From the IMG/VR virus record IMGVR_UViG_2547132421_000009: a DNA stretch of 16,261 bases; one strand, given 5' to 3'. Of this stretch, positions 1 to 16,261 are shown piece after piece; position 1 is the stretch's first letter, and each line of letters starts with the position of its first letter. The stretch comes from a virus. Lineage: Duplodnaviria > Heunggongvirae > Uroviricota > Caudoviricetes. Made by a program: the position numbers and the translations under genes. A model generated the notes under the pieces. That model did not search any database and was not told the DNA's origin. It saw only the letters and a list, made by a program, of their open reading frames with translations.

Positions 1-869
1 CTAAGCGAGGTTCTGGTTTCCAAATTGTTCCGGACTGAGGCCGCCACACCAACTGTGCCGCCGCCACCGATTGTAATCACATTCGATATAATTAAACACC
101 GTTGCCCGCATTATTTCCCGGCTGATAAAGTGTTCTCCATGGATACATTCCACTTTCAGCGAATGAAAGAAGCTTTCCACGCAGGCATTATCGTAGCAGC
201 AACCTTTTGCGCTCATACTTCCACGCAGATTATGCCGCTTCAGTTGCGCCTGATAATCTGCTGAACAGTACTGGCCTCCACGGTCCGTGTGAACGATAAC
301 GTTCCGGGGCCTCTTACGCCGCCACAGCGCCATCTGCAGGGCATCGCAGGCCAGTTGCGCCGTCATGCGTGGCGACATTGACCAGCCAATAACGGCACGT
401 GACCACAGGTCAATGACCACTGCCAGATACAGCCAGCCTTCATCTGTACGTAAGTACGTGATGTCTCCTGCCCACTTCTGGTTCGGGCCACTGGCGTAAA
501 AATCCTGCTCCAACAGATTTTCTGACACAGGCAGGCCGTGTGCGCGGTAGCTGACCGGGCTGAACTTCCGGGAGGCCTTTGCCCTCAGTCCCTGACGGCG
601 CAGGCTTGCCGCCACGGTTTTTACGTAAAGGGGTACCCTGAGCACGCAGTTCATCCGTCAGGCGTGGGGCACCGTAACGCTGTTTTGACCGGGTAAAGCC
701 GCGAGGACAACGCTGTCGCAGTGTTGGCGGAACTGCTGACGCGTGCTTATCCTTGTCCGCCGCTGACACCACGTATACCAGCCGCTGCGGGCCACCCGGA
801 GCACGCGGCACATTGCTTTGATGCTGAACTCAGCCTGATGTTTTTCAATTCAATAAAGACATACTTCAT
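1..869 (-). pseudogene. insF: IS3 orfB DDE transposase (InsF-like) split across three reading frames
   Basis: Consecutive InsF-like segments lie in different frames: MKYVFIE then a stop; [28 protein letters not shown]...VVLAA; [21 protein letters not shown] (frame of ORF 440-811); [12 protein letters not shown]...DDE core...SPEQF (ORF 1-654). This implies at least three small indels relative to an intact 288-aa orfB. Confidence 0.7.
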
Positions 870-1165
870 TTCAGGCGCTTCGCGAAGTATGTCGCGGCCT
901 TTTGGAGGATAGCCAGCTCTTCATCCCGTTCTGCCAGCTGGCGTTTGAGACGTGCAATCTCGGTAGACATCTCCAGTTCACGTTCAGAAGACGTCTGCTG
1001 ATTTTGCTGTTTACTGCGCCAGTTGTAGAGTTGTGATTCATACAGGCTGAGTTCACGGGCTGCGGCAGTAACACCGATGCGTTCAGCAAGCTTCAGGGCT
1101 TCACTGCGAAATTCAGGCGAATGCTGTTTACGGGGTTTTTTACTGGTTGATACTGTTTTTGTCAT
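866..1165 (-). CDS. insE: IS3 orfA transposase subunit (InsE-like, 99 aa from the ATG at 1165)
   Basis: Translation MTKTVSTSKKPRKQHSPEFRSEALKLAERIGVTAAARELSLYESQLYNWRSKQQ...AKRLK; GAGGTG Shine-Dalgarno 5 nt upstream of the ATG. The ORF track extends it to 1174 from a GTG. Confidence 0.85.
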   Translation of the reverse strand: MTKTVSTSKKPRKQHSPEFRSEALKLAERIGVTAAARELSLYESQLYNWRSKQQNQQTSSERELEMSTEIARLKRQLAERDEELAILQKAATYFAKRLK

Positions 1166-1342
1166 GTGAGTCACCTCTGACTGAGAGTTTACTCACTTAG
1201 CCGCGTGTCCACTATTGCTGGGTAAGATCATTACCAAAAGACTGCCGAATAATCTTCTTCCATGGCAAACCGCGACCGCGTGAAGTGTCAGAGGATTGGC
1301 TTCCTCTCATTAGCGCGTTTTTTGAGCGAGAATCAGAATAAT

Positions 1343-1372
1343 ATTGCTCTAATAATTCAATATTTTTAAAAC
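1343..1372 (+). promoter_or_regulatory. C1 operator-like 17-mer (ATTGCTCTAATAATTCA, 1343-1359) with embedded promoter-like elements TTGCTC -17 bp- TAAAAC
   Basis: 14/17 match to the P1 C1 operator consensus ATTGCTCTAATAAATTT. Lies upstream of the plus-strand genes at 1423 and 1643. Confidence 0.6.
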
Positions 1373-1422
1373 GTGATGTACACTCATAACGTTTTTTATT
1401 AGAACAATCTACAAGGTGCACT

Positions 1423-1641
1423 ATGTGGCCATTCCGACGGAAATATCACTACTGGCTGATCGCCTTTGTTACGCCGACCGGCGGTATCAGGCATGTCATC
1501 ACCAGGTATCGCAACAAGAGACTCACCTTAGCCAGAATTTTACAGGCTGCCATAGGTGAGGGACTGGATACAAATTGCGTAGTCCTTCCTCCTTCATACT
1601 TAGGAAAAATGACCGAAGCACAAGCTAATACGGAACTTTGA
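1423..1641 (+). CDS. hypothetical small protein (72 aa)
   Basis: ORF with AAGGTG Shine-Dalgarno 6 nt upstream; its TGA stop (1639-1641) lies one base before the ATG of the next gene (1643). Composition is not strongly protein-like. Confidence 0.3.
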   Translation: MWPFRRKYHYWLIAFVTPTGGIRHVITRYRNKRLTLARILQAAIGEGLDTNCVVLPPSYLGKMTEAQANTEL

Positions 1642-1642
1642 A

Positions 1643-2905
1643 ATGAGCACTTCAGCACAAAACCAATCAATCGAAAATGTATCTATCCCTGACGTCCTGA
1701 ATGCCGGTATCCCGGCCATTATCCAGAACATCCGGGCCGCGCAACGCCGCGTTAGTTGTGATGACCTCACAGCGCGTTTTTTTGATAATGCGGTTCAGTC
1801 AGCGGAGATGCTTCACGCACAGCTTATTGATGTTTATAACGCAGAAGCTGATAGCCATAACTCCCTGGTAGATGCAGCTGAAAATATGCAGTTGGATCTC
1901 GGTCTGAAGGGTAAAGAAATTGAAGAGCTTCAGCTGCAAATTGAACATTTGAAACGCCAGCAACAGGACGCGATCGACGATGCGACGCATGACGCCAACC
2001 AGCGTGCTGATAATGCCGAACGTATAAGCATTGAGCTGGAAACAAAACTCAATGAAATGACCGCGATGGTTGAACTGCGGAACTCACAGATTTCAACGCT
2101 AAAATCTCAATATAAAGAGATCATGAAACTTGATCCTTTTAACCTTGAGAAACGCTATAACAAAGCTAAAAGCGAGCGACAGGAACTGCGTAAGCAGGTC
2201 GCCGATCTTAACCAACAGCTCAAAAAAACTATTAAAGATGCAAGCGAAGCGCGCGTGGCATTTGCTAATAAAAAAGCAGAGGTTACCGCGCTGGTTAATG
2301 AAAATGCTAAATTTGCGACGCTCAAGAAGGAAATGTATGGCATTACTGAGCGCCGTTTTCCTGCAAGCAAACTCCATCCGACGTTAGGGCAAATCTCATT
2401 CTTCCCGCGCCTCCTGGCTTATGGGATCTCATCGCCTAAAGAGTTCAATAACGAGCGTCCTTATATCGTTTCTAAGCTGGACTTTGCTTATCAGTTCTGC
2501 TGCGACATGGGCTATGCCATTGATATCCGAATCAACGAATGGTTGATGCCAAACTTCCAGCCGTTGGCAATTTTCCGCGAGTTCCAGCCGGAAGGTTGGG
2601 TAGAGTTCTTCCATGAATTGATCTGTAAAGAGATGGAAAGCCGCCGCCCGGAACTGGTCCGTCGAGTTGAGTGGGCGCAAGAGGTTATGTTGGCAGATGC
2701 AGAGCTGCCGTTCGAACCGGAATTTATTGATGATCTGGCAGCTAAAGGGCTGCATACCCTGTTTGATGTGGTTACCCGCCGTCATGAGCAGTTGGTTGTC
2801 GAATTGGGTTTAGAGGAAACAGCGGCAAGAAGACTTCTTGATGTTTGCTATGCACTTAGCGATGCATGGGAAAAAGTGAACGGCGGCACTATTTACGTTC
2901 GCTGA
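1643..2905 (+). CDS. hypothetical protein, 420 aa, N-terminal ~220 aa predicted coiled coil plus C-terminal globular domain
   Basis: Long ORF with heptad-like charged N-terminal half (EELQLQIEHLKRQQQ..., ELRKQVADLNQQLKK...) followed by a strong intrinsic terminator. No family recognised. Confidence 0.6.
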   Translation: MSTSAQNQSIENVSIPDVLNAGIPAIIQNIRAAQRRVSCDDLTARFFDNAVQSAEMLHAQLIDVYNAEADSHNSLVDAAENMQLDLGLKGKEIEELQLQIEHLKRQQQDAIDDATHDANQRADNAERISIELETKLNEMTAMVELRNSQISTLKSQYKEIMKLDPFNLEKRYNKAKSERQELRKQVADLNQQLKKTIKDASEARVAFANKKAEVTALVNENAKFATLKKEMYGITERRFPASKLHPTLGQISFFPRLLAYGISSPKEFNNERPYIVSKLDFAYQFCCDMGYAIDIRINEWLMPNFQPLAIFREFQPEGWVEFFHELICKEMESRRPELVRRVEWAQEVMLADAELPFEPEFIDDLAAKGLHTLFDVVTRRHEQLVVELGLEETAARRLLDVCYALSDAWEKVNGGTIYVR

Positions 2906-2927
2906 TAGTTACAGTGTCACTTTTAAT

Positions 2928-2958
2928 GCTGGTGGAGTGCGCCCACCAGCATTTTTTT
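2928..2958 (+). terminator. Rho-independent terminator (GCTGGTGG-agtgcgc-CCACCAGC followed by ATTTTTTT)
   Basis: 8-bp perfect stem, 7-nt loop and a T7 run, 23 bp after the stop of the 420-aa gene. Confidence 0.7.
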
Positions 2959-2977
2959 CGTCCAATGAGGAGGGCAT

Positions 2978-3484
2978 TTGAGTATTTTCAATAAACACGC
3001 ACACCAGGAACGTCCGTACATTGTCATAGTAGATATTGATGGAACGATATCGGAGGCAACGGAAGACAGGCTGCATTTACTTCCACCGCCTGGCAACGGT
3101 GCATTAACAGAGCACTGGAACGAGTTTAACCTTGCCTGTGACACTGATGCTTCCATCACTCCAGTTATTGATATGGTGCGCCAGTTGTCCAGCATTTACA
3201 CGCTCTGGTTTGTAACCGGGCGCTGTGAGATAGCCAGGGATAAAACACGAGCCTGGTTGCGTAAGCACGTAACAAATGGGGCAGAGCCTTTGCTATCTAT
3301 GCGTCCCGCCACCGATGACAGAAATGACGGTCCAGCAAAGATTGATCTCCTTAAGAAAATTGGTCTAAGCAAAATTGCGTTCGCGCTGGAAGATAAGATT
3401 GAAGTGGCGCGTGTTTTCAGGAGGCACGGCGTGCTTACGTTAATGGTCAGGGAGTATGAAAACGCGCTTCTCCATCAACAATAA
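2978..3484 (+). CDS. HAD-superfamily phosphatase-like protein (168 aa), TTG start
   Basis: GGAGG Shine-Dalgarno 4 nt before TTG. HAD-like motifs: motif I VDIDGT, motif II LWFVTGR, a conserved Lys (WLRKH) and an acidic motif ATDDRNDG. Confidence 0.55.
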   Translation: MSIFNKHAHQERPYIVIVDIDGTISEATEDRLHLLPPPGNGALTEHWNEFNLACDTDASITPVIDMVRQLSSIYTLWFVTGRCEIARDKTRAWLRKHVTNGAEPLLSMRPATDDRNDGPAKIDLLKKIGLSKIAFALEDKIEVARVFRRHGVLTLMVREYENALLHQQ

Positions 3485-3513
3485 TTGCTCTAATAAATAA
3501 TGATTTTTAAAAC
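3484..3513 (+). promoter_or_regulatory. C1 operator-like 17-mer (ATTGCTCTAATAAATAA, 3484-3500) with the same TTGCTC -17 bp- TAAAAC architecture as the 1343 module
   Basis: 15/17 match to the C1 operator consensus; near-identical ~30-bp module to 1343-1372; sits in front of the 3583-6387 gene block. Confidence 0.6.
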
Positions 3514-3531
3514 AGAGAAAGTGAAAATAAA

Positions 3532-3553
3532 AACATGCCGCAAGGCGCGGCAT
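3532..3553 (-). terminator. Hairpin CATGCCGC-aagg-CGCGGCATG, followed by a U-run only on the minus strand
   Basis: Perfect 8-bp inverted repeat. The minus strand reads hairpin then TGTTTTTATTTTCAC; the plus strand has no U-tract, so it could alternatively be a 5'-leader structure of the downstream operon. Confidence 0.35.
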
Positions 3554-3582
3554 GTATCCAATCAATCACAGGAGCTGAAAAT

Positions 3583-3669
3583 ATGAACACGGCATTCAAA
3601 ATCATTATGGCCGCGATCTATTTCTGGCTGTTCTCTATCACTTTTGGCGGCATCGTCGCACATGGGTAA
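3583..3669 (+). CDS. small hydrophobic peptide, 28 aa (MNTAFKIIMAAIYFWLFSITFGGIVAHG)
   Basis: AGGAG Shine-Dalgarno 8 nt upstream of the ATG; single predicted transmembrane-like segment; its stop overlaps the Shine-Dalgarno of the next gene. Below the ORF-track length cutoff. Confidence 0.35.
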   Translation: MNTAFKIIMAAIYFWLFSITFGGIVAHG

Positions 3670-3678
3670 GGGGGATGC

Positions 3679-4257
3679 ATGAAAGGCGAAGTGAAAGAGC
3701 GCGGCATGATTTTTAACGATGAGATGGTCCGGGCAATTCTTGGCGGGAATAAAACACAGACTCGCAGGATTGTTGAAGAAAAATTCTATGGACGGGCAGT
3801 GGCCGCAGAGTTGCTTGCCAAGCATTGTCCATATGGTCAACCGGGCGATCGTATTTGGGTTCGCGAAACCTACCGGGTACATGGCAAAGCGACGGACGTC
3901 GCAACGCTGGTTTATCGCGCAAGCGTGCGTAACTCCTGGACAGAACAAACGCACCGGGTTCCGGTCGAGGTTTGTAATAAACCAGTATCAGAAAAGTGGA
4001 CGCCATCAATTCACATGCCGCGCTGGGCATCGCGCATTCTTTTGGAAATTACCGACGTGCGTGTGGAACGGCTGCATGACATGAGCGAGGAAGATGCTAA
4101 AGCAGAAGGCGCAACTCCGGCGACGTACAAGATTACGCCATCTGAAGCTGTTTATCGCGTTGGTTTTGGTGATATCTGGCGCAGTATTTACGGGCAGGAT
4201 AACTGGCTATCTAACCCGTTGGTATGGGTAATCGAGTTTAAGCGCATTCAGGAATAA
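3679..4257 (+). CDS. ASCH-domain protein (192 aa)
   Basis: AGGGGG Shine-Dalgarno. Motifs resemble ASCH/PUA-like proteins such as E. coli YqfB: EMVRAILGGNKTQTRR near the N-terminus, GDRIWVRE, and C-terminal WVIEFKRI. Confidence 0.6.
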   Translation: MKGEVKERGMIFNDEMVRAILGGNKTQTRRIVEEKFYGRAVAAELLAKHCPYGQPGDRIWVRETYRVHGKATDVATLVYRASVRNSWTEQTHRVPVEVCNKPVSEKWTPSIHMPRWASRILLEITDVRVERLHDMSEEDAKAEGATPATYKITPSEAVYRVGFGDIWRSIYGQDNWLSNPLVWVIEFKRIQE

Positions 4258-4260
4258 ACC

Positions 4261-4634
4261 GTGAGTATGCATCAAGTCGTCAGCTTTTCAGGTGGACGAA
4301 CATCGGCTTATCTCGTTCATCTGATGGAAGCACAGCGAAAAGCTGGCGTTAGCGTCCATTTCATTTTTATGGATAGCAGAACTGGAAAGCAACGAAGTCC
4401 GTGAAGTCGGAAATCAGTTTCTTGTTGTTCGCCATCCTGGGAAAACTCCTGTCATCAAGCACTGCACTGGTGACCTGGAAGAGTTTCTGCGGAAGTTAAT
4501 CGAACAAGACCCGTTAGTAACTATCGACATCATTACGCATCGCTATTACGGGATTGGCGGTCAATGGGTTCAGGATGCAGTTGAGTATCTGCATATGATG
4601 TCTGACGCTGGCATTCGCATCAAAGGAGAGTGAT
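4261..4634 (+). pseudogene. PP-loop (SGGxxS) PAPS-reductase-like gene remnant, split between two frames
   Basis: Frame 1 from GTG 4261 / ATG 4267: MHQVVSFSGGRTSAYLVHLMEAQRKAGVSVHFIFMDSRTGKQRSP, stop at 4402-4404. Frame 2 continues without a start from about 4325 to the stop at 4631-4633: ...EVREVGNQFLVVRHPGKTPVIKHCTGDLEEFLRKLIEQDPLVTIDIITHRYYGIGGQWVQDAVEYLHMMSDAGIRIKGE. The combined length (~125 aa) is too short for an intact PP-loop enzyme. Confidence 0.4.
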
Positions 4635-5150
4635 ATGGCGTTAACACACCGCGAACTCTGTCAGATTGCGTACAAGTTCCTTAAGCGCAACGGGTTCAAG
4701 GTTTGTTTTCATGACCGCTTTATAGCTGTAACCAGTACCGGAGAACAGCCAGATGCTATGGGATTCAGAAATTCAGCATCATGCCTGATAGAGGCGAAGT
4801 GTTCTCGTGCTGACTTGTTGGCAGATAGAAAAAAGCGTTTTCGTAAAAATCCGTCTCTTGGAATGGGCGACTGGCGATTCTTTATTAGTGAGCCGGGAAT
4901 TATTTCAATTGAGGATTTACCACCTGGCTGGGGATTACTTCACGTTGTTAACGGAAGAGTACGGAAAGTACATGGGTGGCCCAAGGGTAATTGCTGTTGG
5001 GGTAATCCTGACGATAAGCCATTTACTGGAAATAAGCAGGTTGAATGCGATTACATGTTATCTGCATTAAGGCGCATGGAGTTGAGAGGGCACCTTAATG
5101 AAATATATGACGGTGTAATTGTTAATAAGAAAGAAGGAAACGCGGCATGA
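4635..5150 (+). CDS. putative PD-(D/E)xK-type nuclease-fold protein (171 aa)
   Basis: AAGGAG Shine-Dalgarno 7 nt upstream. Candidate catalytic motif ...GEQPD(39)AMGFRNSASCLIE(53)AK(55)... with spacing typical of restriction-endonuclease-like folds. Confidence 0.45.
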   Translation: MALTHRELCQIAYKFLKRNGFKVCFHDRFIAVTSTGEQPDAMGFRNSASCLIEAKCSRADLLADRKKRFRKNPSLGMGDWRFFISEPGIISIEDLPPGWGLLHVVNGRVRKVHGWPKGNCCWGNPDDKPFTGNKQVECDYMLSALRRMELRGHLNEIYDGVIVNKKEGNAA

Positions 5151-6028
5151 CCACTATTACCAAAGAGCGACTACTGACAATCAAGCAGTGGCGCGAAACA
5201 TACGGACCTGGTAGCAACGTTGTACTGCCAGCAGAAGAAGCGGAAGAACTGGCACGAATTGCTCTGGCATCACTGGAAGCAAAACCAATAGGTGCATTCC
5301 ACATTGCAGAACAGCAAGTTGACGGCACAAGTGACTACCTCAAGGATGGAGAATGGCCTATTGATAATGGAATTATTGAGGTCTACGCCGCTCCCCCCGT
5401 TCCAGTAGTACCGGAAGAAAAACCAATGCCTAACGCTCTAAGCATGCTTGAAAGAGAGATCACACAACTGATTGGTGATGCGCAGGAAGCCACTGTTACT
5501 GGCTATGAGTTAATCGCTGAAGCTTGGCGTTTGATGGATGGACAAGACCCTAAAACCAGCGATTGGCATAGCAAGGCTTCGAAGTATTTAAATTCCAATA
5601 TTGTAGAAAAAGTTGATGATGACCGTATTGATGCAATTAAGGCTGTTTTGCGTAGACTGGCTGGCAACTATCCGGATATTCCGGATAGTTCGGTGCCTAC
5701 GCCAGGAAAGGGCGTCACCGGTGAACGTATCCGCATTAAGCCGCATGTTTATCGCGAACTGGTTAACCGTCTCCACGATACAGCGATCAAGTGTGCTGGC
5801 ACCCAGCAATTACGAGAAAGAATTAGCCGTGTTTTGGGCGACGTTATTACGCCATATCATCATAAACAAGCCGAGAAAAGCGGTCTGGAAAGGTGTCATC
5901 TTGAGGCAGCATTAAACATTAAGCCGGGGCATACGCTTGGCATTATTGATGCACTGTTGGTTCATAAGATGGCCAGGGCTTTATTGTCGTTGGTGGACGC
6001 TGGTGATACAAGCGAGGGTGAAGTATGA
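5147..6028 (+). CDS. hypothetical protein (293 aa)
   Basis: Long ORF whose ATG overlaps the stop of the upstream gene (ATGA) and whose stop overlaps the next start; no family recognised. Confidence 0.6.
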   Translation: MTTITKERLLTIKQWRETYGPGSNVVLPAEEAEELARIALASLEAKPIGAFHIAEQQVDGTSDYLKDGEWPIDNGIIEVYAAPPVPVVPEEKPMPNALSMLEREITQLIGDAQEATVTGYELIAEAWRLMDGQDPKTSDWHSKASKYLNSNIVEKVDDDRIDAIKAVLRRLAGNYPDIPDSSVPTPGKGVTGERIRIKPHVYRELVNRLHDTAIKCAGTQQLRERISRVLGDVITPYHHKQAEKSGLERCHLEAALNIKPGHTLGIIDALLVHKMARALLSLVDAGDTSEGEV

Positions 6029-6387
6029 GAGTTGCAGATCACATCAAACACCTTGAAAGAATTATCGAAAACGGTGAACTCTTAAGAGATCAGATGAGAC
6101 GCACGGCAGAAGCCAGGGAGGCGATAATCCGCAGTCAGGCTGGTAAATTAAAGCAATTGTCAGAGATTAACACGCTATACAAGAACAGACGTAACCGGGC
6201 GGTGATGCGGCTTCAGAAAGCACGTAATGAAATTAAATTGGTGGAGGCAAAACTGAAAAAACAGATCCAGCGTTACGATCAGCAAGATGCTTTTTATGCC
6301 GCCATCAAGGCGGCTGCTAATGAAATAGGCATCTGGAAGTTGCTGGTGGAGAAAGCAAAGACGAAGTTAAATGCCAACGAAAGCTGA
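6025..6387 (+). CDS. hypothetical coiled-coil protein (120 aa)
   Basis: ATGA overlap with the upstream gene; GAGGGTG Shine-Dalgarno; K/R/E-rich heptad-like sequence. Confidence 0.55.
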   Translation: MRVADHIKHLERIIENGELLRDQMRRTAEAREAIIRSQAGKLKQLSEINTLYKNRRNRAVMRLQKARNEIKLVEAKLKKQIQRYDQQDAFYAAIKAAANEIGIWKLLVEKAKTKLNANES

Positions 6388-6444
6388 ACTACAGGTGCCC
6401 ACCAGCACATACAGAAAATGATTGTTTCCACATCAAGGAGATTT

Positions 6445-6467
6445 TAATGTTTCACTGAAACATTAAG
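6445..6467. repeat. 23-bp perfect palindrome TTAATGTTTCA-C-TGAAACATTAA
   Basis: Read directly from the sequence: 11-bp arms around a single centre base, in the intergenic region after the 5147-6387 gene block. Confidence 0.8.
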
Positions 6468-6600
6468 TAAGCCAGTGCATAATTCCATTTTTTACTGACC
6501 TTAAAAGCAAAATCAAAACGATGATGAGGATAATAGCCAGAATCTGGCTAATAATAGGCGCATCTAAAAATGCACTCAGGAACTGAAAAAAAGCGTTCAT
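6463..6600 (-). CDS. small hydrophobic protein, 45 aa (MNAFFQFLSAFLDAPIISQILAIILIIVLILLLRSVKNGIMHWLT)
   Basis: Minus-strand ORF from ATG at 6600..6598 to TAA at 6465..6463; AAGGA 9 nt upstream; one long predicted transmembrane helix. Its 3' end overlaps the 23-bp palindrome. Confidence 0.3.
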   Translation of the reverse strand: MNAFFQFLSAFLDAPIISQILAIILIIVLILLLRSVKNGIMHWLT

Positions 6601-7319: not shown

Positions 7320-7335
7320 GCCTCCCTCCTCCATC

Positions 7336-7378: not shown

Positions 7379-7445
7379 TCTTATTTGAGGAAATAACGTT
7401 GTTGACAGCTAATAGGCTCGTTGTTGTTATACATGCCTGTATAGA

Positions 7446-8951: not shown

Positions 8952-9023
8952 GCTGCAAAGTGCTGGTGCTTTATGCCTGTGAAGTTTATAATTGTGTACA
9001 CATAACGAGTACACGAGGTGTTT

Positions 9024-9625: not shown

Positions 9626-9629
9626 ATTA

Positions 9630-9809
9630 ATGGCACGCAAATACAACAAATTGTCCCGTGAAGCGTTAAAGATGCTTCTTGATGGCGTGAGTCGCCGCAA
9701 GATAAAGCAATACCTGGTTAGTAAGCAAATTGGTGCCAGGACCGCTATTGCTGTGTTATGCCGTCAGGAAATGGTTGTGCTTAAACAGATAATGTCGGGC
9801 AGCAGATAA
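9630..9809 (+). CDS. hypothetical small basic protein (59 aa from ATG 9630)
   Basis: ORF immediately downstream of doc (MARKYNKLSREALKMLLDGVSRRKIKQYLVSKQIG...); occupies the position I recall for pdcA in P1. Identity not verified. Confidence 0.4.
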   Translation: MARKYNKLSREALKMLLDGVSRRKIKQYLVSKQIGARTAIAVLCRQEMVVLKQIMSGSR

Positions 9810-9836
9810 AGCCCAATCAGTGATTAAAGGTGTGAT

Positions 9837-10883
9837 GTGAAAGCCGTAATTACTCCCTTTGTACAGAAAGAGCTTGGCCTCGCCACGTTCAAAGTGGATC
9901 AGGAGGTCAGAAAGCTGGTGGAGGCTGGCCGTAAATTTATTATGGAGCCGGTGCCGCGTGAGTTAATCGAGCACATGGAAGACGGCCTCGTTGTTACCGA
10001 GCAAACCATGGCAACAAATGAGGCGTTGCAGCCGTTTTTTAACAGCGATGAACTGTTTCGCCGTATTGGTGGAATTGACGCGCTGGTGGCGTGGTTGCGT
10101 AGGAAAGAGGGTCAATGCCAGGCCGCAGATCGTAGTTGGTGTGACAACCATATTGTCCACGCTGAACGAGACAATAGCGCGGTGTTGTTGTGCTGGCATC
10201 ACGATAACCATTACCGGATGCGTGGTTTTAATGAGCTGAAAGAAACGCTGCACAATAATCGCGTTAACTGGATACTGGATGTCGCCCGTCAGGAAATGGG
10301 CCTTTCAAATAGCCATGATTTAAGTATTCAGGGGCTGTGCTGGTGGGCTTTCATGCGCAACATGATGCACCTGATGCCGGAAGAAGTCTGCCGCATATCA
10401 ATAATAAATAAGATGAAGGCTACTCCGCAGGATAGTGGACCACTGAAAGAGGCGGATATTCGCCCGTATGACGATCGCGCTACAGCATATGTTCAGATGA
10501 TGGAAGAACGCGCCGCGCCGATGCGTGCAAAAGTATGCCCTGTGGATGTTGACTCCGACCCAGGTATGGCGCATTTCAAAATACCAAAACTGCAATCGCT
10601 AAAATTACCTGAGTACATGGACTTTGTTGCTTCCCGTCCATGCTGTGGGTGTGGAGCGGCGGGAGCTGGCGCTCACATTACGCCTTATATCGTTCGTTAT
10701 AGTCGATTATGCGCGCATGACATTTATGCTATTCCTCTGTGCCAGTCATGCCAGCGTGATATTGAGCGTGACCGCGATAATTGGGAGAAGACGCACGGTA
10801 GGCTGGCGATGCATCAACGATTGTTCTTTGATTACGCGCTTGGAGTCGGCGCTATCACAAGTCATTCGTCGAGCGTTAGATAA
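9837..10883 (+). CDS. hypothetical Cys/His-rich protein (348 aa), GTG start
   Basis: AAAGG Shine-Dalgarno 6 nt before GTG. Cys/His clusters [12 protein letters not shown] and CCGCG...H...C.H......CQSCQ suggest a zinc-binding or HNH-like module. Confidence 0.6.
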
Positions 10884-10884
10884 A

Positions 10885-10914
10885 ATTGCTCTAATGTATT
10901 GCTATTTCTTTAAT
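10885..10914 (+). promoter_or_regulatory. C1 operator-like 17-mer ATTGCTCTAATGTATTG with downstream TTTAAT at -10 spacing
   Basis: 14/17 match to the C1 operator consensus with the ATTGCTCTAAT core intact; TTGCTC -17 bp- TTTAAT; directly upstream of the antirepressor-like gene. Confidence 0.5.
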
Positions 10915-10971
10915 CGAGGGTATTATATTCGACGTTGATTAGTTGACATGGGCTAATCAGTAGGTGACAGG

Positions 10972-12117
10972 ATGTTACTTAACTGGCAGGGACGCCACTT
11001 CATGGAAATAAATCACTCACGAATAACATCGTACGAGATTGCGGATTACATGATCCGCACTAAATCTCTTCTATCAGCGAAAGAACTCGCAGCAATTCTT
11101 GAAAAGGAATACCCGCATCTGGATGTCGATAAGCGCGATGTTTATCTGCGCTTAAAGGCTATCGCTGTGACCGATATCCGTGAATACCTGCTCGAACAGG
11201 GTCATCTGAATTACGCAACCGTCGCAGCCGAAGCACGCAAGGAGGCACACAGAATGAAAGCAACTAACGTTAAATCAGAAAAAATTCATGCAACTTCAGT
11301 TCAGGAATCAGAGCTGGTGGTTGTTCAGAATCAGTCTGATGAAATTCCCGTTCTGGAATGGCTGGGAGTGCGTGTAGTAACGACCGAAACTCTTGCTAAG
11401 GGGTATGGAACCGATGAAGCTAATATTCGTAAAAATTTGTCTCGCAACTCCGATCGCTTTGAAGAAGGTAAGCATTACTATCTCTTAACTGGTTCAAAAT
11501 TAAAGGAATTTAAAAGGCTGGTGACTACTAGTCACCTGGTTAGCAAATATACAAGCCAGGTAATTCTTTGGGCCGAACGCGGAGCGGCACGCATGTCTAA
11601 GATCGTAAACACAGATGAAGCATGGGCATTCTTTGAAAAACTGGAAGACAGCTACTTCCGGCAAAAAGAACAGCAACCGGTCGCAATCCCCCAAACACTA
11701 CCTGAAGCCTTGCGCCTGGCTGCCGAGCTGGCTGAACAAAAGCAGCTACTGGAACAGAAGGCCCACCAGCTAAATCAACAACTGGTGGCCGCAGCCCCCA
11801 AGGTCGATTTTGCCGACCGTGTATCAGTGGCTAAGGGGATCCTGATTGGTAATTTTGCAAAGGTTGTTGGGCTGAAGCAAAACGCGCTGTTTGCCTGGTT
11901 ACGGGAGAACGGCATTCTGATAGCGTCCGGCGGGCGTAAAAATGTGCCGTTCCAGCAGTACATAAACGCCGGATATTTCACAGTGAAAGAAGTGGTGCTG
12001 GATGATGAAGATGGCTACCAGATACGGCTGACGCCCCAATTAACGGGGAAAGGACAACAGTGGTTGACGCGTAAACTGCTCGATGCTGGCTTGTTAAAAC
12101 CGGTGGCGGCTGAATAA
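10972..12117 (+). CDS. antirepressor-like protein with ORF6N and KilA-C (ANT) domains (381 aa; start could instead be the ATG at 11002)
   Basis: Central region VRVVTTETLAKGYGTDEANIRKNLSRNSDRFEEGKHYYLLTG...LWAERGAARMSKIVNTDEAWAFFEKLEDSYF fits ORF6N; C-terminal region ...NFAKVVGLKQNALFAWLRENGILIASGGRKNVPFQQYINAGYFTVKEV fits KilA-C. Confidence 0.7.
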   Translation: MLLNWQGRHFMEINHSRITSYEIADYMIRTKSLLSAKELAAILEKEYPHLDVDKRDVYLRLKAIAVTDIREYLLEQGHLNYATVAAEARKEAHRMKATNVKSEKIHATSVQESELVVVQNQSDEIPVLEWLGVRVVTTETLAKGYGTDEANIRKNLSRNSDRFEEGKHYYLLTGSKLKEFKRLVTTSHLVSKYTSQVILWAERGAARMSKIVNTDEAWAFFEKLEDSYFRQKEQQPVAIPQTLPEALRLAAELAEQKQLLEQKAHQLNQQLVAAAPKVDFADRVSVAKGILIGNFAKVVGLKQNALFAWLRENGILIASGGRKNVPFQQYINAGYFTVKEVVLDDEDGYQIRLTPQLTGKGQQWLTRKLLDAGLLKPVAAE

Positions 12118-12124
12118 TGGAAGA

Positions 12125-12146
12125 ATGCCCGGTTGATGCCGGGCAT
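12125..12146. terminator. bidirectional terminator hairpin ATGCCCGG-ttgatg-CCGGGCAT between the convergent antirepressor-like gene and c1
   Basis: 8-bp perfect stem, 8 nt after the 12117 stop and 3 nt after the c1 stop (12150-12152); U-rich sequence follows on both strands. Confidence 0.55.
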
Positions 12147-12149
12147 AAT

Positions 12150-13001
12150 TTATTGCGCGCTTTCGGGGTTGTCGTTTACTGGCTGCCCCTTCTTAGTTTT
12201 ACGACTGCGCGTAACTGATGCGGCTGATTTGACCTTTTTCTCTTCGCGAGTGATGGCAATTTGTTTTTTTACATTTTCAATATCTGCCAGGCGATATATT
12301 TTTGCCTGCGGCCAGCGGTCGCAGATGATCGGTTCTATGGAGTCATAAAGGCTAAATTTTGCTTTCTCGAATTCACCGTTGATGATGATTCCATCACGGA
12401 GGGTTTCATCGCAGATAAACACGCCACACAGTGGCACATGGTAACTAACTGATTTACCATCATTGTAGTTAGGGCTACTGGAAATGTAGTGGACGCGCAG
12501 CATTGTTTCGCTAAAGCCGTGTACGCGCATACGGAATTTTTCATCCTCCGGGTACTGCTTCATTAGCTCTTTTGTTGCTTCCAGGTTCTCTATGTATTTC
12601 GCACTGTGCTCATTGAACCCCGCGCTTTTTTGGATGCGAATATCCTTATCAATCAGATGAATAATGCGGCCAGCGGTCATGTTGACGCTGTTCACAGCTT
12701 CTGTCTGATAAGTTGTAACCTTACGTACACCGCGAAGGATGTTAGGCACTGGATATAAAATAGTCTTTGGGATATTGAGGTCTGGGTACTGTTCCAGTTC
12801 CCGCGCCATTAAAGTCCATTTATCAATTTCAGCCTGAATGCTGTCCGTTTCTTTGAACGGCAGAACGACAACCGGGCGAACAGGACGACCGTCGCTGGCG
12901 GCATCAACGTGTTGGGCGCGTGCAACAGCTTTTTTTAGAAAGAGATCCCTGAAGCTGACGAACTCCTGGTACAGTTGTTCGCCGTAGACATAATTTATCA
13001 T
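12150..13001 (-). CDS. c1: C1 repressor of lysogeny (283 aa)
   Basis: 283-aa ORF (MINYVYGEQLYQEFVSFRDLFLKKAVARAQ...) matching P1 C1 in length and sequence as recalled; GGAGG Shine-Dalgarno; adjacent to coi and to the C1 operators near loxP. Confidence 0.9.
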   Translation of the reverse strand: MINYVYGEQLYQEFVSFRDLFLKKAVARAQHVDAASDGRPVRPVVVLPFKETDSIQAEIDKWTLMARELEQYPDLNIPKTILYPVPNILRGVRKVTTYQTEAVNSVNMTAGRIIHLIDKDIRIQKSAGFNEHSAKYIENLEATKELMKQYPEDEKFRMRVHGFSETMLRVHYISSSPNYNDGKSVSYHVPLCGVFICDETLRDGIIINGEFEKAKFSLYDSIEPIICDRWPQAKIYRLADIENVKKQIAITREEKKVKSAASVTRSRKTKKGQPVNDNPESAQ

Positions 13002-13111
13002 TGATCCTCCTCCAGAATTGACATGGTCAATAACGCCCGGCTGAGAAAACCGGTCATTACTGACCTATATTATAGAGGGATCAAACAAAAATAATAGATT
13101 TATTAGTGCAT

Positions 13112-13321
13112 TTATTGTGAGGCTAACTGGTTAGTTGCCATGAGATATTCGATTGTGTCAGTGAGGTCATCCAGGTCGTCTTGGGTGATGCGGTAGTCCT
13201 GATTGGATATCTTTGAGTAGTGTTCAGCAATGGTGCGGGCAGCGTCGGTTTCGGCAGGGTCTACAGATAAAGCGTTAGAGCAATGTCTAACGTCGTCGAT
13301 GGTTGGTTGAATGAAAGCCAT
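13112..13321 (-). CDS. coi: Coi, C1 inactivator (69 aa)
   Basis: 69-aa ORF (MAFIQPTIDDVRHCSNALSVDPAETDAARTIAEHYSKISNQDYRITQDDLDDLTDTIEYLMATNQLASQ) immediately upstream of c1 on the same strand, GAGG Shine-Dalgarno; matches P1 Coi in size and position. Confidence 0.85.
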   Translation of the reverse strand: MAFIQPTIDDVRHCSNALSVDPAETDAARTIAEHYSKISNQDYRITQDDLDDLTDTIEYLMATNQLASQ

Positions 13322-13553
13322 AATTATGCCTCACTGTATTGACAACACAGAGCCTGAAGCTCTGACCTACTGTTTCACCCATGATCCATGCTGGGGTAAT
13401 CTAACAACATTGCGCTGTGTGTAAGATGAGCAATGCATAGCTGTAATGCCGTTGTATAAGGTTTCCCTGTTTGCTCATTTCCTTCTGAGCCGCTCTACAA
13501 CGCTGAAGACACATTAAATAGTGAATCCAAAGTCGTATTACGTAACGGCGGCA

Positions 13554-13582
13554 AAACTATAATTTATTAGAGCAATTGTCAA
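13554..13582 (-). promoter_or_regulatory. C1 operator (ATTGCTCTAATAAATTA, minus strand 13576..13560) filling the spacer of a TTGACA / TATAGT promoter that reads leftward toward coi and c1
   Basis: 16/17 match to the operator consensus; TTGACA at 13582..13577 immediately followed by the operator; TATAGT or ATAGTT at -10 position (spacer 15-16 bp). This is the classic P1 repressor-controlled promoter layout. Confidence 0.65.
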
Positions 13583-13642
13583 ACAACTATGAAAAACAAT
13601 CCAGTTTTTAGCTGGTGGAGTGGGATTTTTCTCTCAAAATTT

Positions 13643-13659
13643 ATTGCTCTAATAATTCT
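13643..13659 (+). promoter_or_regulatory. C1 operator-like 17-mer ATTGCTCTAATAATTCT
   Basis: 15/17 match to the consensus; lies between the leftward promoter and loxP, in opposite orientation to the 13560-13576 operator. Confidence 0.6.
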
Positions 13660-13702
13660 TGATTTTTGTGCGCAGCTGGACGTAAACTCCTCTTCGGACC
13701 TG

Positions 13703-13736
13703 ATAACTTCGTATAGCATACATTATACGAAGTTAT
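13703..13736. other. loxP site-specific recombination site (34 bp)
   Basis: Exact ATAACTTCGTATA-GCATACAT-TATACGAAGTTAT: two 13-bp inverted repeats around the 8-bp asymmetric spacer, 437 bp upstream of cre as in P1. Confidence 0.97.
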
Positions 13737-13755
13737 CTTAAGGGTTATTGAACAT

Positions 13756-13828
13756 GATCAATTTACCTGTAAATCCATACAGTTCAATACCTTATCAGGT
13801 CAAATAGTGATCACTTGATCATTTGATC
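13756..13828. promoter_or_regulatory. cluster of four Dam methylation sites (TGATCA hexamers) in the loxP-cre interval
   Basis: GATC at 13756, 13809, 13817 and 13825; the last three are spaced 8 bp apart. P1 cre expression is reported to be influenced by Dam methylation of its promoter region. Confidence 0.6.
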
Positions 13829-13925
13829 AAGGTTGCGCTACGTAAAATCTGCGAAATGTTGGCAGTGTTAGTGCTCCAGATTTCGCGTAGCGCACTTAGC
13901 ACCACCAATCAATCAGAGGTGAAAA

Positions 13926-14147
13926 ATGGGATATTCAGCTGCTAAAGTGTCCACTCATCTTGAGCTTGAGAAAAACCGTGGTTACTGGCGGGCAAAAGGG
14001 TTTGATCGTGATAGTTGTCAACTGTCATTATCGCGCGGTGAAGAGAAAATAGAACGCACGCGCGGTCGCTGGCGTTTCTATGACGAGAACCATAAACAGG
14101 TAAAGGCAGAGCCGATCCTGTACACTTTACTTAAAACCATTATCTGA
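13926..14147 (+). CDS. hypothetical small protein (73 aa) directly upstream of cre
   Basis: GAGGTG Shine-Dalgarno 5 nt before the ATG; stop 8 bp before the cre ATG. No family recognised. Confidence 0.35.
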   Translation: MGYSAAKVSTHLELEKNRGYWRAKGFDRDSCQLSLSRGEEKIERTRGRWRFYDENHKQVKAEPILYTLLKTII

Positions 14148-14154
14148 GTGTTAA

Positions 14155-15186
14155 ATGTCCAATTTACTGACCGTACACCAAAATTTGCCTGCATTACCGG
14201 TCGATGCAACGAGTGATGAGGTTCGCAAGAACCTGATGGACATGTTCAGGGATCGCCAGGCGTTTTCTGAGCATACCTGGAAAATGCTTCTGTCCGTTTG
14301 CCGGTCGTGGGCGGCATGGTGCAAGTTGAATAACCGGAAATGGTTTCCCGCAGAACCTGAAGATGTTCGCGATTATCTTCTATATCTTCAGGCGCGCGGT
14401 CTGGCAGTGAAAACTATCCAGCAACATTTGGGCCAGCTAAATATGCTTCATCGTCGGTCCGGGCTGCCACGACCAAGTGACAGCAATGCTGTTTCACTGG
14501 TCATGCGACGGATCCGAAAAGAAAACGTTGATGCCGGTGAGCGTGCAAAACAGGCGCTGGCGTTCGAACGCACTGATTTCGACCAGGTTCGTTCACTCAT
14601 GGAAAATAGCGATCGCTGCCAGGATATACGTAATCTGGCATTTCTGGGGATTGCTTATAACACCCTGTTACGTATAGCCGAAATTTCTAGGATCAGAGTT
14701 AAAGATATCTCACGTACTGACGGTGGGAGAATGTTAATCCATATTGGCAGAACGAAAACGCTGGTTAGCACCGCTGGTGTAGAGAAGGCACTTAGTCTGG
14801 GGGTAACTAAACTGGTTGAGCGATGGATTTCTGTCTCTGGTGTGGCTGATGATCCGAATAACTACTTGTTTTGCCGTGTCAGAAAAAATGGTGTTGCCGC
14901 GCCATCTGCCACCAGCCAGCTATCAACTCGCGCCCTGGAAGGGATTTTTGAAGCAACTCACCGATTGATTTACGGGGCTAAGGATGACTCTGGCCAGAGG
15001 TACCTGGCCTGGTCTGGACACAGTGCCCGTGTCGGAGCCGCGCGAGATATGGCCCGTGCCGGAGTTTCAATACCGGAGATCATGCAAGCTGGTGGCTGGA
15101 CCAACGTAAATATTGTCATGAACTATATCCGTAACCTGGATAGTGAAACAGGGGCAATGGTGCGCCTGCTGGAAGATGGCGATTAG
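14155..15186 (+). CDS. cre: Cre tyrosine site-specific recombinase (343 aa)
   Basis: Full-length match to P1 Cre as recalled (MSNLLTVHQNLPALPVDATSDEVRKNLMDMFRDRQAFSEHTWKMLLSVCRSWAAWCKLNNRKWFPAEPEDVRDYLLYLQARGLAVKTIQQHLGQLNMLHRRSGLPRPSDSNAVSLVMRRIRKEN...MVRLLEDGD); adjacent loxP. Confidence 0.97.
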   Translation: MSNLLTVHQNLPALPVDATSDEVRKNLMDMFRDRQAFSEHTWKMLLSVCRSWAAWCKLNNRKWFPAEPEDVRDYLLYLQARGLAVKTIQQHLGQLNMLHRRSGLPRPSDSNAVSLVMRRIRKENVDAGERAKQALAFERTDFDQVRSLMENSDRCQDIRNLAFLGIAYNTLLRIAEISRIRVKDISRTDGGRMLIHIGRTKTLVSTAGVEKALSLGVTKLVERWISVSGVADDPNNYLFCRVRKNGVAAPSATSQLSTRALEGIFEATHRLIYGAKDDSGQRYLAWSGHSARVGAARDMARAGVSIPEIMQAGGWTNVNIVMNYIRNLDSETGAMVRLLEDGD

Positions 15187-15203
15187 CCATTAACGCGTAA
15201 ATG

Positions 15204-15220
15204 ATTGTTCTAATTCTTTG
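15204..15220 (+). promoter_or_regulatory. degenerate C1 operator-like 17-mer ATTGTTCTAATTCTTTG
   Basis: 12/17 match to the consensus with a substitution inside the conserved core; 17 bp upstream of the 15237 ORF. Confidence 0.35.
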
Positions 15221-15236
15221 ATATTTATGGTGACAT

Positions 15237-15548
15237 ATGAGAAAGGATTTCAACATCGACGGAAAATATGTAGTGCTGTCTGTAAGCACTAATATTCAGT
15301 CGCCAGCCGTCATTGTCACTGTAAAGCTGAGCGATAGAATGCCTGATATTGACTCAATATCCGTTGCGTTCCCTGTCAAAAGTATGCGTGGTGCTGAACA
15401 TTTCGTGATGAATGCCACCGAGGAAGAAGCACGGCGCGGTTTTGCTAAAGTAGTGTCTGACTTTGGCGAACTCTTGGATAAGGTTAACAATGTCCTTTCA
15501 ATCAGTTCAGCAAGGTCCAAAGCGTTAACAGCTTCCATGATGAAATAA
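15237..15548 (+). CDS. hypothetical protein (103 aa)
   Basis: ORF immediately downstream of cre (MRKDFNIDGKYVVLSVSTNIQSPAVIVTVKLSDRMPDIDSISVAFPVKSMRGAEHFVMNATEEEARRGFAKVVSDFGELLDKVNNVLSISSARSKALTASMMK). No family recognised. Confidence 0.5.
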   Translation: MRKDFNIDGKYVVLSVSTNIQSPAVIVTVKLSDRMPDIDSISVAFPVKSMRGAEHFVMNATEEEARRGFAKVVSDFGELLDKVNNVLSISSARSKALTASMMK

Positions 15549-15552
15549 AAAA

Positions 15553-15573
15553 AGCCTGGCAAGGAACCAGGCT
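15553..15573 (-). terminator. hairpin AGCCTGG-caaggaa-CCAGGCT with a T7 run on the minus strand (leftward terminator)
   Basis: 7-bp perfect stem; the plus strand shows AAAAAAA before the hairpin, which is TTTTTTT after it on the minus strand. No U-tract follows on the plus strand. Confidence 0.5.
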
Positions 15574-15675
15574 GCACAAAAGAGCGGGTTTGTGTTCCGC
15601 ATCCAATCAATCAGAAAGGAGTATAGCACATAGATACTAAAGTGAAAAAATGTGACTGAAGATAAACAATATAAC

Positions 15676-15699
15676 ATTGCTCTAATTGATTGTTATAAT
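15676..15699 (+). promoter_or_regulatory. C1 operator-like 17-mer ATTGCTCTAATTGATTG (15676-15692) overlapping a consensus TATAAT (15694-15699)
   Basis: 14/17 match to the operator consensus with the ATTGCTCTAAT core intact; perfect -10 hexamer 2 bp downstream; lies upstream of the serine recombinase-like gene. Confidence 0.55.
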
Positions 15700-15896
15700 T
15701 GAGCCGTGGCGTTAGTCAACTACGAAGACGTGGCCATTACCTACTTAACCAGTTCCGCCAGGGCAGCAGAGTAGGTTTCATCTCGGATGTACCATGCCTG
15801 CATGTTTTCCAGAGAAGCCCGCGAGGTTCCCGGACAGGACTCTGCCATTGCGATAGATTAAATGCAATAACCTAAAAGCGATAACGTGGTGGAAAA

Positions 15897-16261
15897 ATGT
15901 TCATCAGAGCTTATTTAAGGGCATCAACGGAAGATCAGTTTGCCGATCGGGCAAAAGAGATGCTGGGGCAGTTTGTTCAGGAGCGGGGACATAAAATAGC
16001 CAGTTACTACCGGGAGAGCATAAGCGGTACAAAACTCGACCGCCGGAACTGGGACGCTTACTGATGGACAGCCACCGCAATGATATTTTACTGGTCGAGC
16101 AAATTGACCGCCTGACCCGTCTGAGTAACAGTGACTGGATTACGCTGAAAAAGCAGATAGAACAACACGAACTGCGGATTGTCGCCTGGATGTATCCACC
16201 TCATGGCAGGCGCTGTCAGATAAAGACCCTTCGCAGGCTGACCCAATCACCCGCGCCGTGA
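15897..16261 (+). pseudogene. serine recombinase (resolvase/invertase family) N-terminal region, interrupted by two apparent single-base frame changes; continues beyond the window
   Basis: Frame 0: MFIRAYLRASTEDQFADRAKEMLGQFVQERGHKIASYYRESISGTKLDR then off-frame stop. Frame +2 (ORF 16064-16261): ...DILLVEQIDRLTRLSNSDWITLKKQIEQHELRIVA. Frame +1 continues LDVSTSWQALSDKDPSQADPITRAV... The catalytic STxDQ motif and the V..LDRL.R motif are typical of serine recombinases. Restoring one C at about 16048 (CGCCGG to CGCCCGG) and one at about 16186 (GCCTGG to GCCCTGG) gives a continuous protein. Confidence 0.65.

Follow-up and report, generated by a model that had tools for sequence, protein, structure and literature searches.

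A decayed P1-like plasmid prophage

The window, by which we mean the whole 16,261-nt stretch of DNA that was analysed, is 100% identical to bases 120–16380 of contig AQEL01000012.1 in the draft assembly GCA_000356585.2 of E. coli P0305260.1. Its genes follow the order of phage P1 (NC_005856.1; pmgR-pmgS-pap ... lxr-humD-phd-doc-pdcAB-lpa-pacAB-c1-coi-cre), to which 53% of the window aligns at about 97% identity. As in P1, the c1, coi, phd, doc and humD genes are intact, and so is cre, which lies outside the aligned P1 stretch; an earlier note on this DNA had described c1, coi, cre, phd and doc as undamaged, which matches how these genes are annotated in relatives whose sequence there is the same or almost the same. 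Unlike P1, the window lacks the rest of lpa, pacA and pacB, has a truncated lxr and a replaced pmgT-V region, and carries an IS3 upstream of pmgR and a transposon remnant after the cre region. It is a section of a decayed, packaging-defective P1-like plasmid prophage, that is, of a deletion derivative. Outside IS3, the features relevant to its decay are the following.

4267–4375, + strand: N-terminal 36 codons of a PAPS-reductase-like (PP-loop, SFSGGRTS) gene, matching L008 at 2501–2665
4373–4633, + strand: C-terminal 86 codons of an ead/Ea22-like gene, matching L009 at 1501–1765, an intact ead/Ea22-like gene
8295–8297, − strand: amber codon (TGG to TAG) at codon 31 of the lxr homologue, relative to the intact 194-aa gene of pFLI21
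10972–12117, + strand: in-frame Lpa-Ant fusion, the product of a 3.76-kb deletion with its junction at 11169–11173
15897–16261, + strand: pseudogene of a serine recombinase (resolvase-type), running on for ~275 nt past the window end
16043–16044, + strand: 1-bp deletion in the recombinase (CCC to CC, GACCGCCCGGAA to GACCGCCGGAA), relative to the intact Rts1 and pKP187 genes
Between 16183 and 16184, + strand: 1-bp deletion of a lone A in the recombinase (TGTCAGCC to TGTCGCC), relative to Rts1 and pKP187, with no homopolymer at the site

Two defective P1-like plasmids were informative for comparison: pMTY9803_untypable1 (NZ_CP135674.1, hereafter pMTY9803), which is 99.9% identical to the window over positions 1–13407, where the similarity ends, and pMRE162 (NZ_CP119403.1), which is 99.4% identical up to position 15740. 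In both, IS3 is inserted at the same site as in the window, lxr has the amber codon, and the region of the Lpa-Ant fusion is shared. The PP-loop/Ea22 junction is the same in pMTY9803 as in the window, while pMRE162 is without that segment (window 3049–4639); conversely, pMRE162 has the same 5-bp duplication in IS3, whereas pMTY9803 carries an intact IS3 without it, as well as an ISVsa5 insertion at window position ~4800. Unlike the window, neither plasmid has any of the three single-base IS3 deletions described below, nor a match to the recombinase pseudogene past 15740.

The amber codon, which both plasmids have as well, is a further genuine inactivating lesion and leaves lxr with a residual ORF of 135 aa at 7803–8210. 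The 3.76-kb deletion takes out the remaining part of lpa together with pacA, pacB and the icd region: in the alignment with the pFLI21 locus, window position 11169 corresponds to position 20514 and window position 11173 to position 24278. The resulting fusion protein matches the Pfam family BPP1_LPA at positions 1–60 of 131, followed by ORF6N and ANT.

Frame breaks in the recombinase and PP-loop genes

The earlier note had counted at least six single-base frame changes, spread over IS3 orfB, the PP-loop gene and the serine recombinase, and had offered pseudogenisation and homopolymer error as the two possible readings. Five of the six are present as single-base changes, three in IS3 and two in the recombinase, but the PP-loop break is of another kind. 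Neither of the two readings fits all of the lesions, and each locus needs to be judged separately: decay accounts for most of them, and an artefact comes into question solely for the three gaps in IS3, where its cause would be a different one.

Compared with the open resolvase-type genes of Rts1 (WP_011039615.1) and pKP187 (WP_012540139.1), which encode 211–213 aa and share ~90% identity with the pseudogene, the recombinase frame is interrupted by the two 1-bp deletions in the window and by a stop codon past the window end. The intact homologues have two more bases. Both deletions had been described as CCC to CC; this is correct for 16043–16044, but at 16183/16184 the missing base is the lone A. 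When the frame is repaired, the translation scores 68.5 bits against PF00239 (cut-off 23.3) and begins with MFIRAYLRASTEDQ, in which the catalytic serine is at position 10. Both deletions are found in identical form in at least 60 complete E. coli replicons. A search with the recombinase segment returned 61 E. coli records at a coverage of at least 80% and 68 at an identity of at least 99%, and the aligned relatives have no gaps against the window. In p12579_1 (NC_017653.1) and pTB-nb1, which are 99.8% identical to 15741–16261 without gaps and contain both 1-bp deletions, RefSeq labels the DNA, identical to the window but for one substitution in the recombinase (N to S at codon 41, also present on 17 contigs), as 'frameshifted; internal stop'. 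The frameshifted 55-aa product occurs on at least 1000 contigs from six sources, NCBI, JGI, ENA and Logan among them. The recombinase is a transposon leftover, and these comparisons show that it is a genuine old pseudogene in which both lesions have been inherited.

At the PP-loop gene, for which a single-base frameshift within 4261–4634 had been proposed, homology switches from PAPS-reductase-like (up to 4375) to ead/Ea22-like (from 4373), with a 3-nt overlap at 4373–4375, and the remainder of the PP-loop gene is deleted. The intact homologue in L008 is 290 aa long and matches PF01507 at 37.5 bits, while the fragment in the window, reduced to 36 codons with the SFSGGRTS motif, has no Pfam match and falls outside PF01507. 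The region 4200–4700 is 100% identical in seven other assemblies (pMTY9803, L017, L019, L020, L021, L024 and L025) and 99.8% identical in an eighth, and PGAP labels the same stretch of pMTY9803 as 'incomplete; missing C-terminus'. We base the conservation of the junction on direct DNA alignment, because the 44-aa gene call of the source and sibling contigs, considered as a possible PP-loop fragment, has coordinates that map to window 3535–3669. The break is thus an inherited deletion or recombination junction.

A hybrid IS3 at the contig end

The left end of the window is occupied by an IS3 element with the following features.

1–1230, − strand: IS3 element, 99.1% identical to K-12 IS3A over 1255 bp; a hybrid of two copies
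866–1165, − strand: intact orfA (insE), 99 aa, a PF01527 gene call in the source contig
844–853, − strand: tandem duplication of 5 bp at codon 7–8 of orfB, IS3 position 373 (reading TTCAA twice on the + strand)
695–697, − strand: 1-bp deletion in an A-run at IS3 position 526, GCTTTTACC to GCTTTACC (canonical A4, T4 on the gene strand)
635, − strand: 1-bp deletion at IS3 position 590, GGTTACCCC to GGTACCCC (canonical AA, GGTTACC on the gene strand)
626, − strand: 1-bp deletion at IS3 position 599, CTTTAACG to CTTTACG (canonical TT, CTTTAACG on the gene strand)
15–20, − strand: two substitutions, at window positions 15 and 20 (InsF E283G and K285Q), both from the second IS3 copy of this strain

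The window opens with the orfB stop codon; the final 30 nt of IS3 lie just beyond it in the source contig, where both ends of the element are present and 1255 of 1255 bp align to K-12 IS3A. The orfA/orfB layout is that of K-12 IS3A (insE/insF), orfA shows no difference from K-12, the base at IS3 position 197 being the K-12 base, and the source contig has gene calls with an rve domain. Unlike the K-12 element, this IS3 has the inherited duplication, three private 1-bp deletions and second-copy variants at its 3′ end, and no intact transposase can be made from it. The orfB gene is broken across three frames, as previously described, and the two examples given in the earlier note, at IS3 positions 526 and 590, are exact against K-12 IS3A; the canonical sequence assumed there was correct. 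The TTCAA duplication and the substitutions at 15 and 20 had escaped that first reading.

The 5-bp duplication is present in five other assemblies, namely the sibling AQES01000007.1, NKVH01000037.1, JARRZH010000015.1, pMRE162 and DADDFO010000046.1, and missing from K-12, pMTY9803 and CP174383.1. To judge from this distribution, it is a genuine inherited frameshift. It shifts the body of orfB to the third frame, so that an OrfAB transposase cannot be produced by one −1 frameshift, and the rve (DDE) domain is encoded only by a detached 175/217-aa ORF. The three 1-bp gaps divide orfB further, after the duplication has already shifted the frame. Because of the inherited duplication, the IS3 transposase is dead regardless of the gaps, and the earlier expectation that such pseudogenes would be functional if the frame changes were artefacts does not hold here, since orfB with the three bases restored is still broken. 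The three deletions add up to −3, and past the last of them the frame is regained, but this has no functional meaning given that the duplication upstream displaces the whole orfB body. Exact look-ups of the start variants of the longest orfB fragment (217, 214, 204 and 171 aa) gave no match, and the 175-aa and 125-aa calls are the only ones on record. For annotation, the recombinase, the PP-loop fragment and this IS3 copy should keep their pseudogene label, and the small ORFs nearby need no rescue.

IS3 is the last feature of AQEL01000012.1 and ends 89 nt from the contig start. On the plasmid side it carries the markers of the plasmid copy (A at IS3 position 197, the duplication at 373 and C at 422), and towards its other end those of the second copy (G at 1206, C at 1211 and C at 1233), followed by 89 nt of flank that is 100% identical to the second-copy flank of L013 and L014 and is not the native plasmid flank of L019, pMTY9803 and pMRE162. 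The terminal repeat thus joins the flanks of different copies, as in a contig-end artefact. The bases at window positions 15 and 20 recur in L013 and L014, where IS3 lies beside SbmA-like and dispersin genes, and the 125-aa product with E283G/K285Q was found on five contigs. Assemblies of the same series, recognised by accession series and strain-name pattern, have private lesions of their own, which likewise fall only within IS elements: there are six differences between L013 and L014, every one in IS3 or IS1 and none in the 2.4 kb of intervening unique DNA, and L019 has two private substitutions in IS3.

Origin of the three private IS3 deletions

The three gaps were called by comparison with K-12 IS3A and with the IS3 that pMTY9803 and pMRE162 carry at this site. 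Neither the sibling contig AQES01000007.1 (probably of strain P0305260.11 or P0305260.15) nor any of the relatives with this insertion has them, and they are likewise missing from the two parental copies of IS3 in sibling assemblies; the sibling contig is 100% identical to the window over 1229–5905, with all seven differences inside IS3. All three gaps together had no match among 13,050 IS3 places in 5,426 complete genomes. Four complete genomes matched with two gaps rather than three, and FT130 (L010), the sole one of these that was aligned, has the A4 to A3 change. Given this recurrence in at least one complete genome, natural slippage may occur at the A4 to A3 site. The 51-aa and 175-aa products encoded across the gaps were found in P0305260.1 and nowhere else in a set of about 15 billion proteins. 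The gaps lie 530–700 nt from either edge of the IS, too far for a 300-bp insert with one end in unique DNA to reach.

We consider it very probable that the frame breaks in the window have three separate origins: inherited pseudogene lesions and a deletion junction, a chimera at the contig end, and the private gaps in IS3. The comparisons show that the old lesions (recombinase, PP-loop/Ea22, the IS3 duplication of 5 bp, the amber codon of lxr and lpa-ant) were handed down with the plasmid lineage, and that the assembler entered the terminal IS3 from the plasmid side and exited into 89 nt of second-copy flank. For the last step we infer that the three 1-bp gaps, which fall within 73 bp in the centre of the collapsed IS3, are most likely consensus errors of repeat mis-assembly, arising where short reads could not have been assigned to a single IS3 copy. 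Some considerations count against an artefact. Illumina sequencing at >200x seldom yields consensus indels; a majority consensus of copies that are all without the gaps should not create them, so that one has to suppose a particular fault in how the assembler laid out the reads or called the consensus; with IS3 already dead, real neutral deletions are in principle not implausible; and the A4 to A3 change recurs in FT130. Every type of lesion found here is ordinary.

The possibility just raised, that all lesions are real and the IS3 of P0305260.1 simply went on decaying after the duplication had killed it, draws on the neutrality of further lesions in a non-functional element, on the genuine decay elsewhere on the plasmid (the lxr amber codon, the Lpa-Ant fusion and the PP-loop deletion) and on the A4 to A3 change in FT130. 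A single colony would have had to lose one base independently at three sites within 73 bp, while the 4.7 kb of adjoining unique DNA shows no difference in a sibling isolate; the lesions lie inside a demonstrably hybrid repeat at a contig end, and same-series assemblies carry different private lesions, again only within IS elements. We therefore regard continued decay as unlikely. We give still less credence to the idea that the hybrid itself is real, the three −1 deletions being scars left at the crossover by one mutagenic, error-prone repair event as the plasmid copy recombined with a second IS3 copy, on a different plasmid, in one patient's clonal ETEC population. This would explain why the markers of both copies appear in a single switch with the gaps between the two sets, and AQEL01000012.1 is indeed longer (162 kb) than the related plasmids (61–77 kb); if true, this would be an IS hybrid observed just as it arose, scars included. 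The contig, however, stops 89 nt, about one read length, past IS3 and does not continue into the SbmA-like/dispersin region, and a stop before unique DNA looks like a repeat-boundary artefact. Multiple −1 scars are not a known outcome of homologous recombination between 99% identical copies. We regard such a repair event as very improbable.

The least probable explanation, to which we assign hardly any weight, is the one the earlier note had raised for the case of an artefact, namely that long-read or ion-semiconductor consensus errors in homopolymers run through the window and the affected genes are really intact. Four of the five losses do shorten a run (4 to 3, 2 to 1, 2 to 1 and 3 to 2). 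Errors of this type would be spread out and concentrated in the longest runs, whereas the five runs in which a base was really lost are 4, 2, 2, 3 and 1 bases long, and the private IS3 indels, in the runs of 4, 2 and 2 inside 73 bp, are not in the longest. The whole window contains 75 runs of at least 5 nt, 24 of them of at least 6 nt; outside IS3, no indel was seen against independent assemblies over about 15 kb, so no run of at least 5 nt there differs in length from its relatives. The project used Illumina HiSeq2000 paired ends with 300-bp inserts and the Celera Assembler (PMC4462620), a platform that we assign to P0305260 by strain-name pattern and accession series, the main text of that paper being without the strain name. 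For the recombinase and the PP-loop gene, homopolymer error is already refuted: the former has the same lesions in at least 60 replicons and at least 1000 contigs from many laboratories and platforms, and the break in the latter is a junction with no indel. Nor would it make IS3 whole, which the duplication common to five assemblies would still break. A methylation-motif error of the nanopore type was also considered and rejected, as no Dam or Dcm motif (GATC, CCWGG) was seen by eye at the three deletion sites and the platform was probably Illumina.

The three IS3 gaps and the substitutions at 15 and 20 are located where a repeat has collapsed and the contig end is chimeric, and they should serve neither to mark the strain nor to argue for evolution within the host. 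In draft short-read assemblies, private lesions confined to IS elements should be distrusted, while a frame break that is common to many independent assemblies can be trusted without reads.

Most frame breaks in the window are inherited

The frame breaks in the window hold no new biology. The earlier note had read at least six single-base frame disruptions as either pseudogenisation or homopolymer assembly error; five of the six exist, one proved to be a junction between two genes, and a 5-bp duplication had been overlooked. Pseudogenisation accounts for most of the lesions, while the homopolymer explanation does not stand. Nor does any of the supposed pseudogenes regain function once artefacts are removed, as had been proposed for several.

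The window is 100% identical to part of the 161,998-bp contig AQEL01000012.1 of the E. coli P0305260.1 draft assembly GCA_000356585.2, contig base 120 being window base 1, and its boundaries are set by gene calls: both ends fall on stop codons of called ORFs (1-3, the orfB stop; 16259-16261, the stop of a frameshifted 65-aa recombinase fragment). P1-like phages and plasmids are ~97% identical to the window, and two defective P1-like E. coli plasmids are closer still, pMTY9803_untypable1 (pMTY9803; 99.9% over 1-13407) and pMRE162 (99.4% as far as 15740). Since P0305260 is not named in the main text of Sahl et al. (mBio 2015, PMC4462620), we infer from strain name and accession series that its assembly belongs to that multi-colony ETEC project, whose genomes were sequenced as Illumina HiSeq2000 paired ends (300-bp inserts, >200x coverage) and assembled with Celera Assembler. 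A general homopolymer error signature was not borne out by comparison with independent assemblies: the window contains 75 homopolymer runs of at least 5 nt and 24 of at least 6 nt, and outside IS3 the alignments to pMTY9803 (over 1229-13407) and to pTB-nb1 and p12579_1 (over 13241-16261) show no indel. On the far side of IS3, outside the window, pMTY9803, AQES01000007.1 and a further related plasmid (L002) carry, upstream of IS3, bcsC (the cellulose synthase outer-membrane subunit gene) together with fragments of TetR and rve_3 in place of P1 morphogenesis genes; foreign DNA has replaced a large part of the prophage in these plasmids.

Lesions of the IS3 copy

Alignment to K-12 IS3A and to ten other assemblies that carry this insertion places the window's differences as follows (IS3 positions run along the element):

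1-1230, minus strand: IS3
844-853: 5-bp tandem duplication (TTCAA twice), IS3 position 373, orfB codon 7-8
695-697: 1-bp deletion, IS3 position 526
635: 1-bp deletion, IS3 position 590
626: 1-bp deletion, IS3 position 599
15 and 20: two substitutions

The strings given as canonical in the earlier note, GCTTTTACC and GGTTACCCC, match the canonical sequence exactly, and orfB is indeed split across three frames. The TTCAA duplication also occurs in AQES01000007.1, NKVH01000037.1, JARRZH010000015.1, pMRE162 and DADDFO010000046.1, a distribution that marks it as a genuine lesion. It puts the body of orfB into a frame that cannot be reached via a single -1 shift from orfA, and this IS3 copy is thus dead whatever the other lesions. 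The same-site IS3 of pMTY9803 (locus L001, 2971-4225) and CP174383.1 (locus L017, 1331-2585) lacks the duplication and is annotated as intact, with a programmed frameshift, which could reflect either reversion by slippage or gene conversion repair from another IS3.

The three 1-bp deletions are private to the P0305260.1 assembly among the sequences compared. Across 5,426 complete E. coli genomes with 13,050 IS3 places, no place carries all three together, and the closest matches are still two gaps away from the window; FT130, one of the four complete genomes matching with two gaps, carries the A4 to A3 change alone. Among ~15 billion proteins, the 51-aa and 175-aa products spanning the deletions occur in P0305260.1 only. 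The sibling assembly AQES01000007.1, with the identical insertion site, lacks the three deletions. Over 1229-5905 it matches the window at 100% identity, which confines all seven differences between the two to IS3.

The source contig extends just 89 nt beyond IS3 before it ends; these 89 nt open contig bases 1-119, the stretch immediately left of window base 1. This flank differs from the plasmid's native flank, as seen in AQES01000007.1, pMTY9803 and pMRE162, and is 100% identical to that of a second IS3 copy, which in AQES01000010.1 and AQBN01000033.1 adjoins genes for an SbmA-like protein and dispersin. This makes the contig end chimeric. Both substitutions, at window 15 and 20, belong to the second copy, as does one further variant at IS3 position 1233, and the first ~60 nt of the window carry that copy's variants. 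The window IS3 is thus a hybrid, with plasmid-copy markers as far as IS3 position 422 and markers of the second copy from position 1206. The three deletions sit between the two marker sets, 530-700 nt from either IS3 edge, further than a 300-bp insert starting in unique sequence can span. A contig that crosses a repeat and ends a read length inside the wrong flank would be typical of repeat-induced assembly ambiguity.

The main rival explanation is that real decay of an already dead IS3, as the duplication makes this copy, produced the three deletions. Against this, private IS changes recur in assemblies that share the accession series and strain-name pattern. AQES01000010.1 and AQBN01000033.1 differ at six sites of the second-copy locus (three 1-bp indels and three substitutions), all six in IS3 or IS1, with no difference in the unique 2.4 kb between the two elements, which points to a systematic weakness of the consensus within IS elements throughout this draft-genome set. 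Each of the two has its own private 1-bp IS3 deletion (positions 724 and 776), and the sibling plasmid IS3 has two private substitutions; in the IS3 alignment, no assembly from another project has more than one private change. We consider it likely, from these comparisons, that the three deletions are an assembly artefact. The artefact claim of the earlier note would thus hold for them, with repeat assembly, not homopolymer chemistry, as the probable source.

Recombinase pseudogene and gene junctions

Rts1 and pKP187 carry intact counterparts at ~90% identity, against which the window recombinase is two bases short:

15897 to ~275 nt past the window end: serine recombinase pseudogene
16043-16044: 1-bp deletion, one C of CCC, versus Rts1 and pKP187
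between 16183 and 16184: 1-bp deletion, a lone A, versus Rts1 and pKP187

Two CCC to CC changes had been proposed here; the first is correct, whereas at the second site a lone A is lost and the intact sequence reads IVSLD, not the guessed IVALD. The frame-repaired translation matches PF00239. Gap-free copies of this DNA with a single mismatch are contained in 61 E. coli records (coverage at least 80%), it is annotated as 'frameshifted; internal stop' in p12579_1 and pTB-nb1, and the frameshifted 55-aa product occurs in at least 1000 contigs (NCBI, JGI, ENA, Logan, UniRef). By this distribution, the recombinase is an old, fixed pseudogene. Upstream, similarity to pMRE162 stops at 15740 and that to the P1-family relatives compared at about 15740-15745. 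The adjoining 15741-15896 carries a minus-strand gene remnant, a partial hypothetical protein in the RefSeq annotation of p12579_1, and resembles the margin of a degraded Tn3-type transposon, given that the Rts1 recombinase homologue adjoins a Tn3-family transposase.

The PP-loop gene (4261-4634), previously taken as frameshifted, instead switches homology from one gene to another at 4373-4375. Window 4211-4375 aligns with the start region of a PAPS-reductase-like gene that is intact on pCRECJH-2 (290 aa; PF01507 match), and 4373-4637 aligns with the 3′ end of an ead/Ea22-like prophage gene, likewise intact. Thirty-six codons bearing the SFSGGRTS motif are thereby joined, with a 3-nt overlap, to the final 86 codons of the ead/Ea22-like gene. 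Because two small genes lie between these genes in pCRECJH-2, the junction was made by deletion or recombination of >1 kb. Seven other assemblies match window 4200-4700 at 100% identity and an eighth at 99.8%, and in pMTY9803 PGAP labels each half a partial gene; this is a genuine, inherited junction.

Two further lesions fit a decaying prophage plasmid. The lxr homologue has an amber at codon 31 (TGG to TAG; 8295-8297, minus strand), also present in pMTY9803 and pMRE162; the residual ORF (135 aa, 7803-8210) is an ordinary hypothetical protein in RefSeq. In addition, a 3.76-kb deletion joins the first ~66 codons of lpa, the late promoter activator gene, in frame to the antirepressor gene ant (10972-12117, junction 11169-11173), removing the remainder of lpa, pacA, pacB and the icd region. 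The element is unable to package itself. The predicted chimeric Lpa-Ant protein (381 aa) is labelled simply 'Ant' in pMTY9803. The annotation of relatives agrees with the earlier note that c1, coi, cre, phd and doc are intact, and humD is likewise intact.
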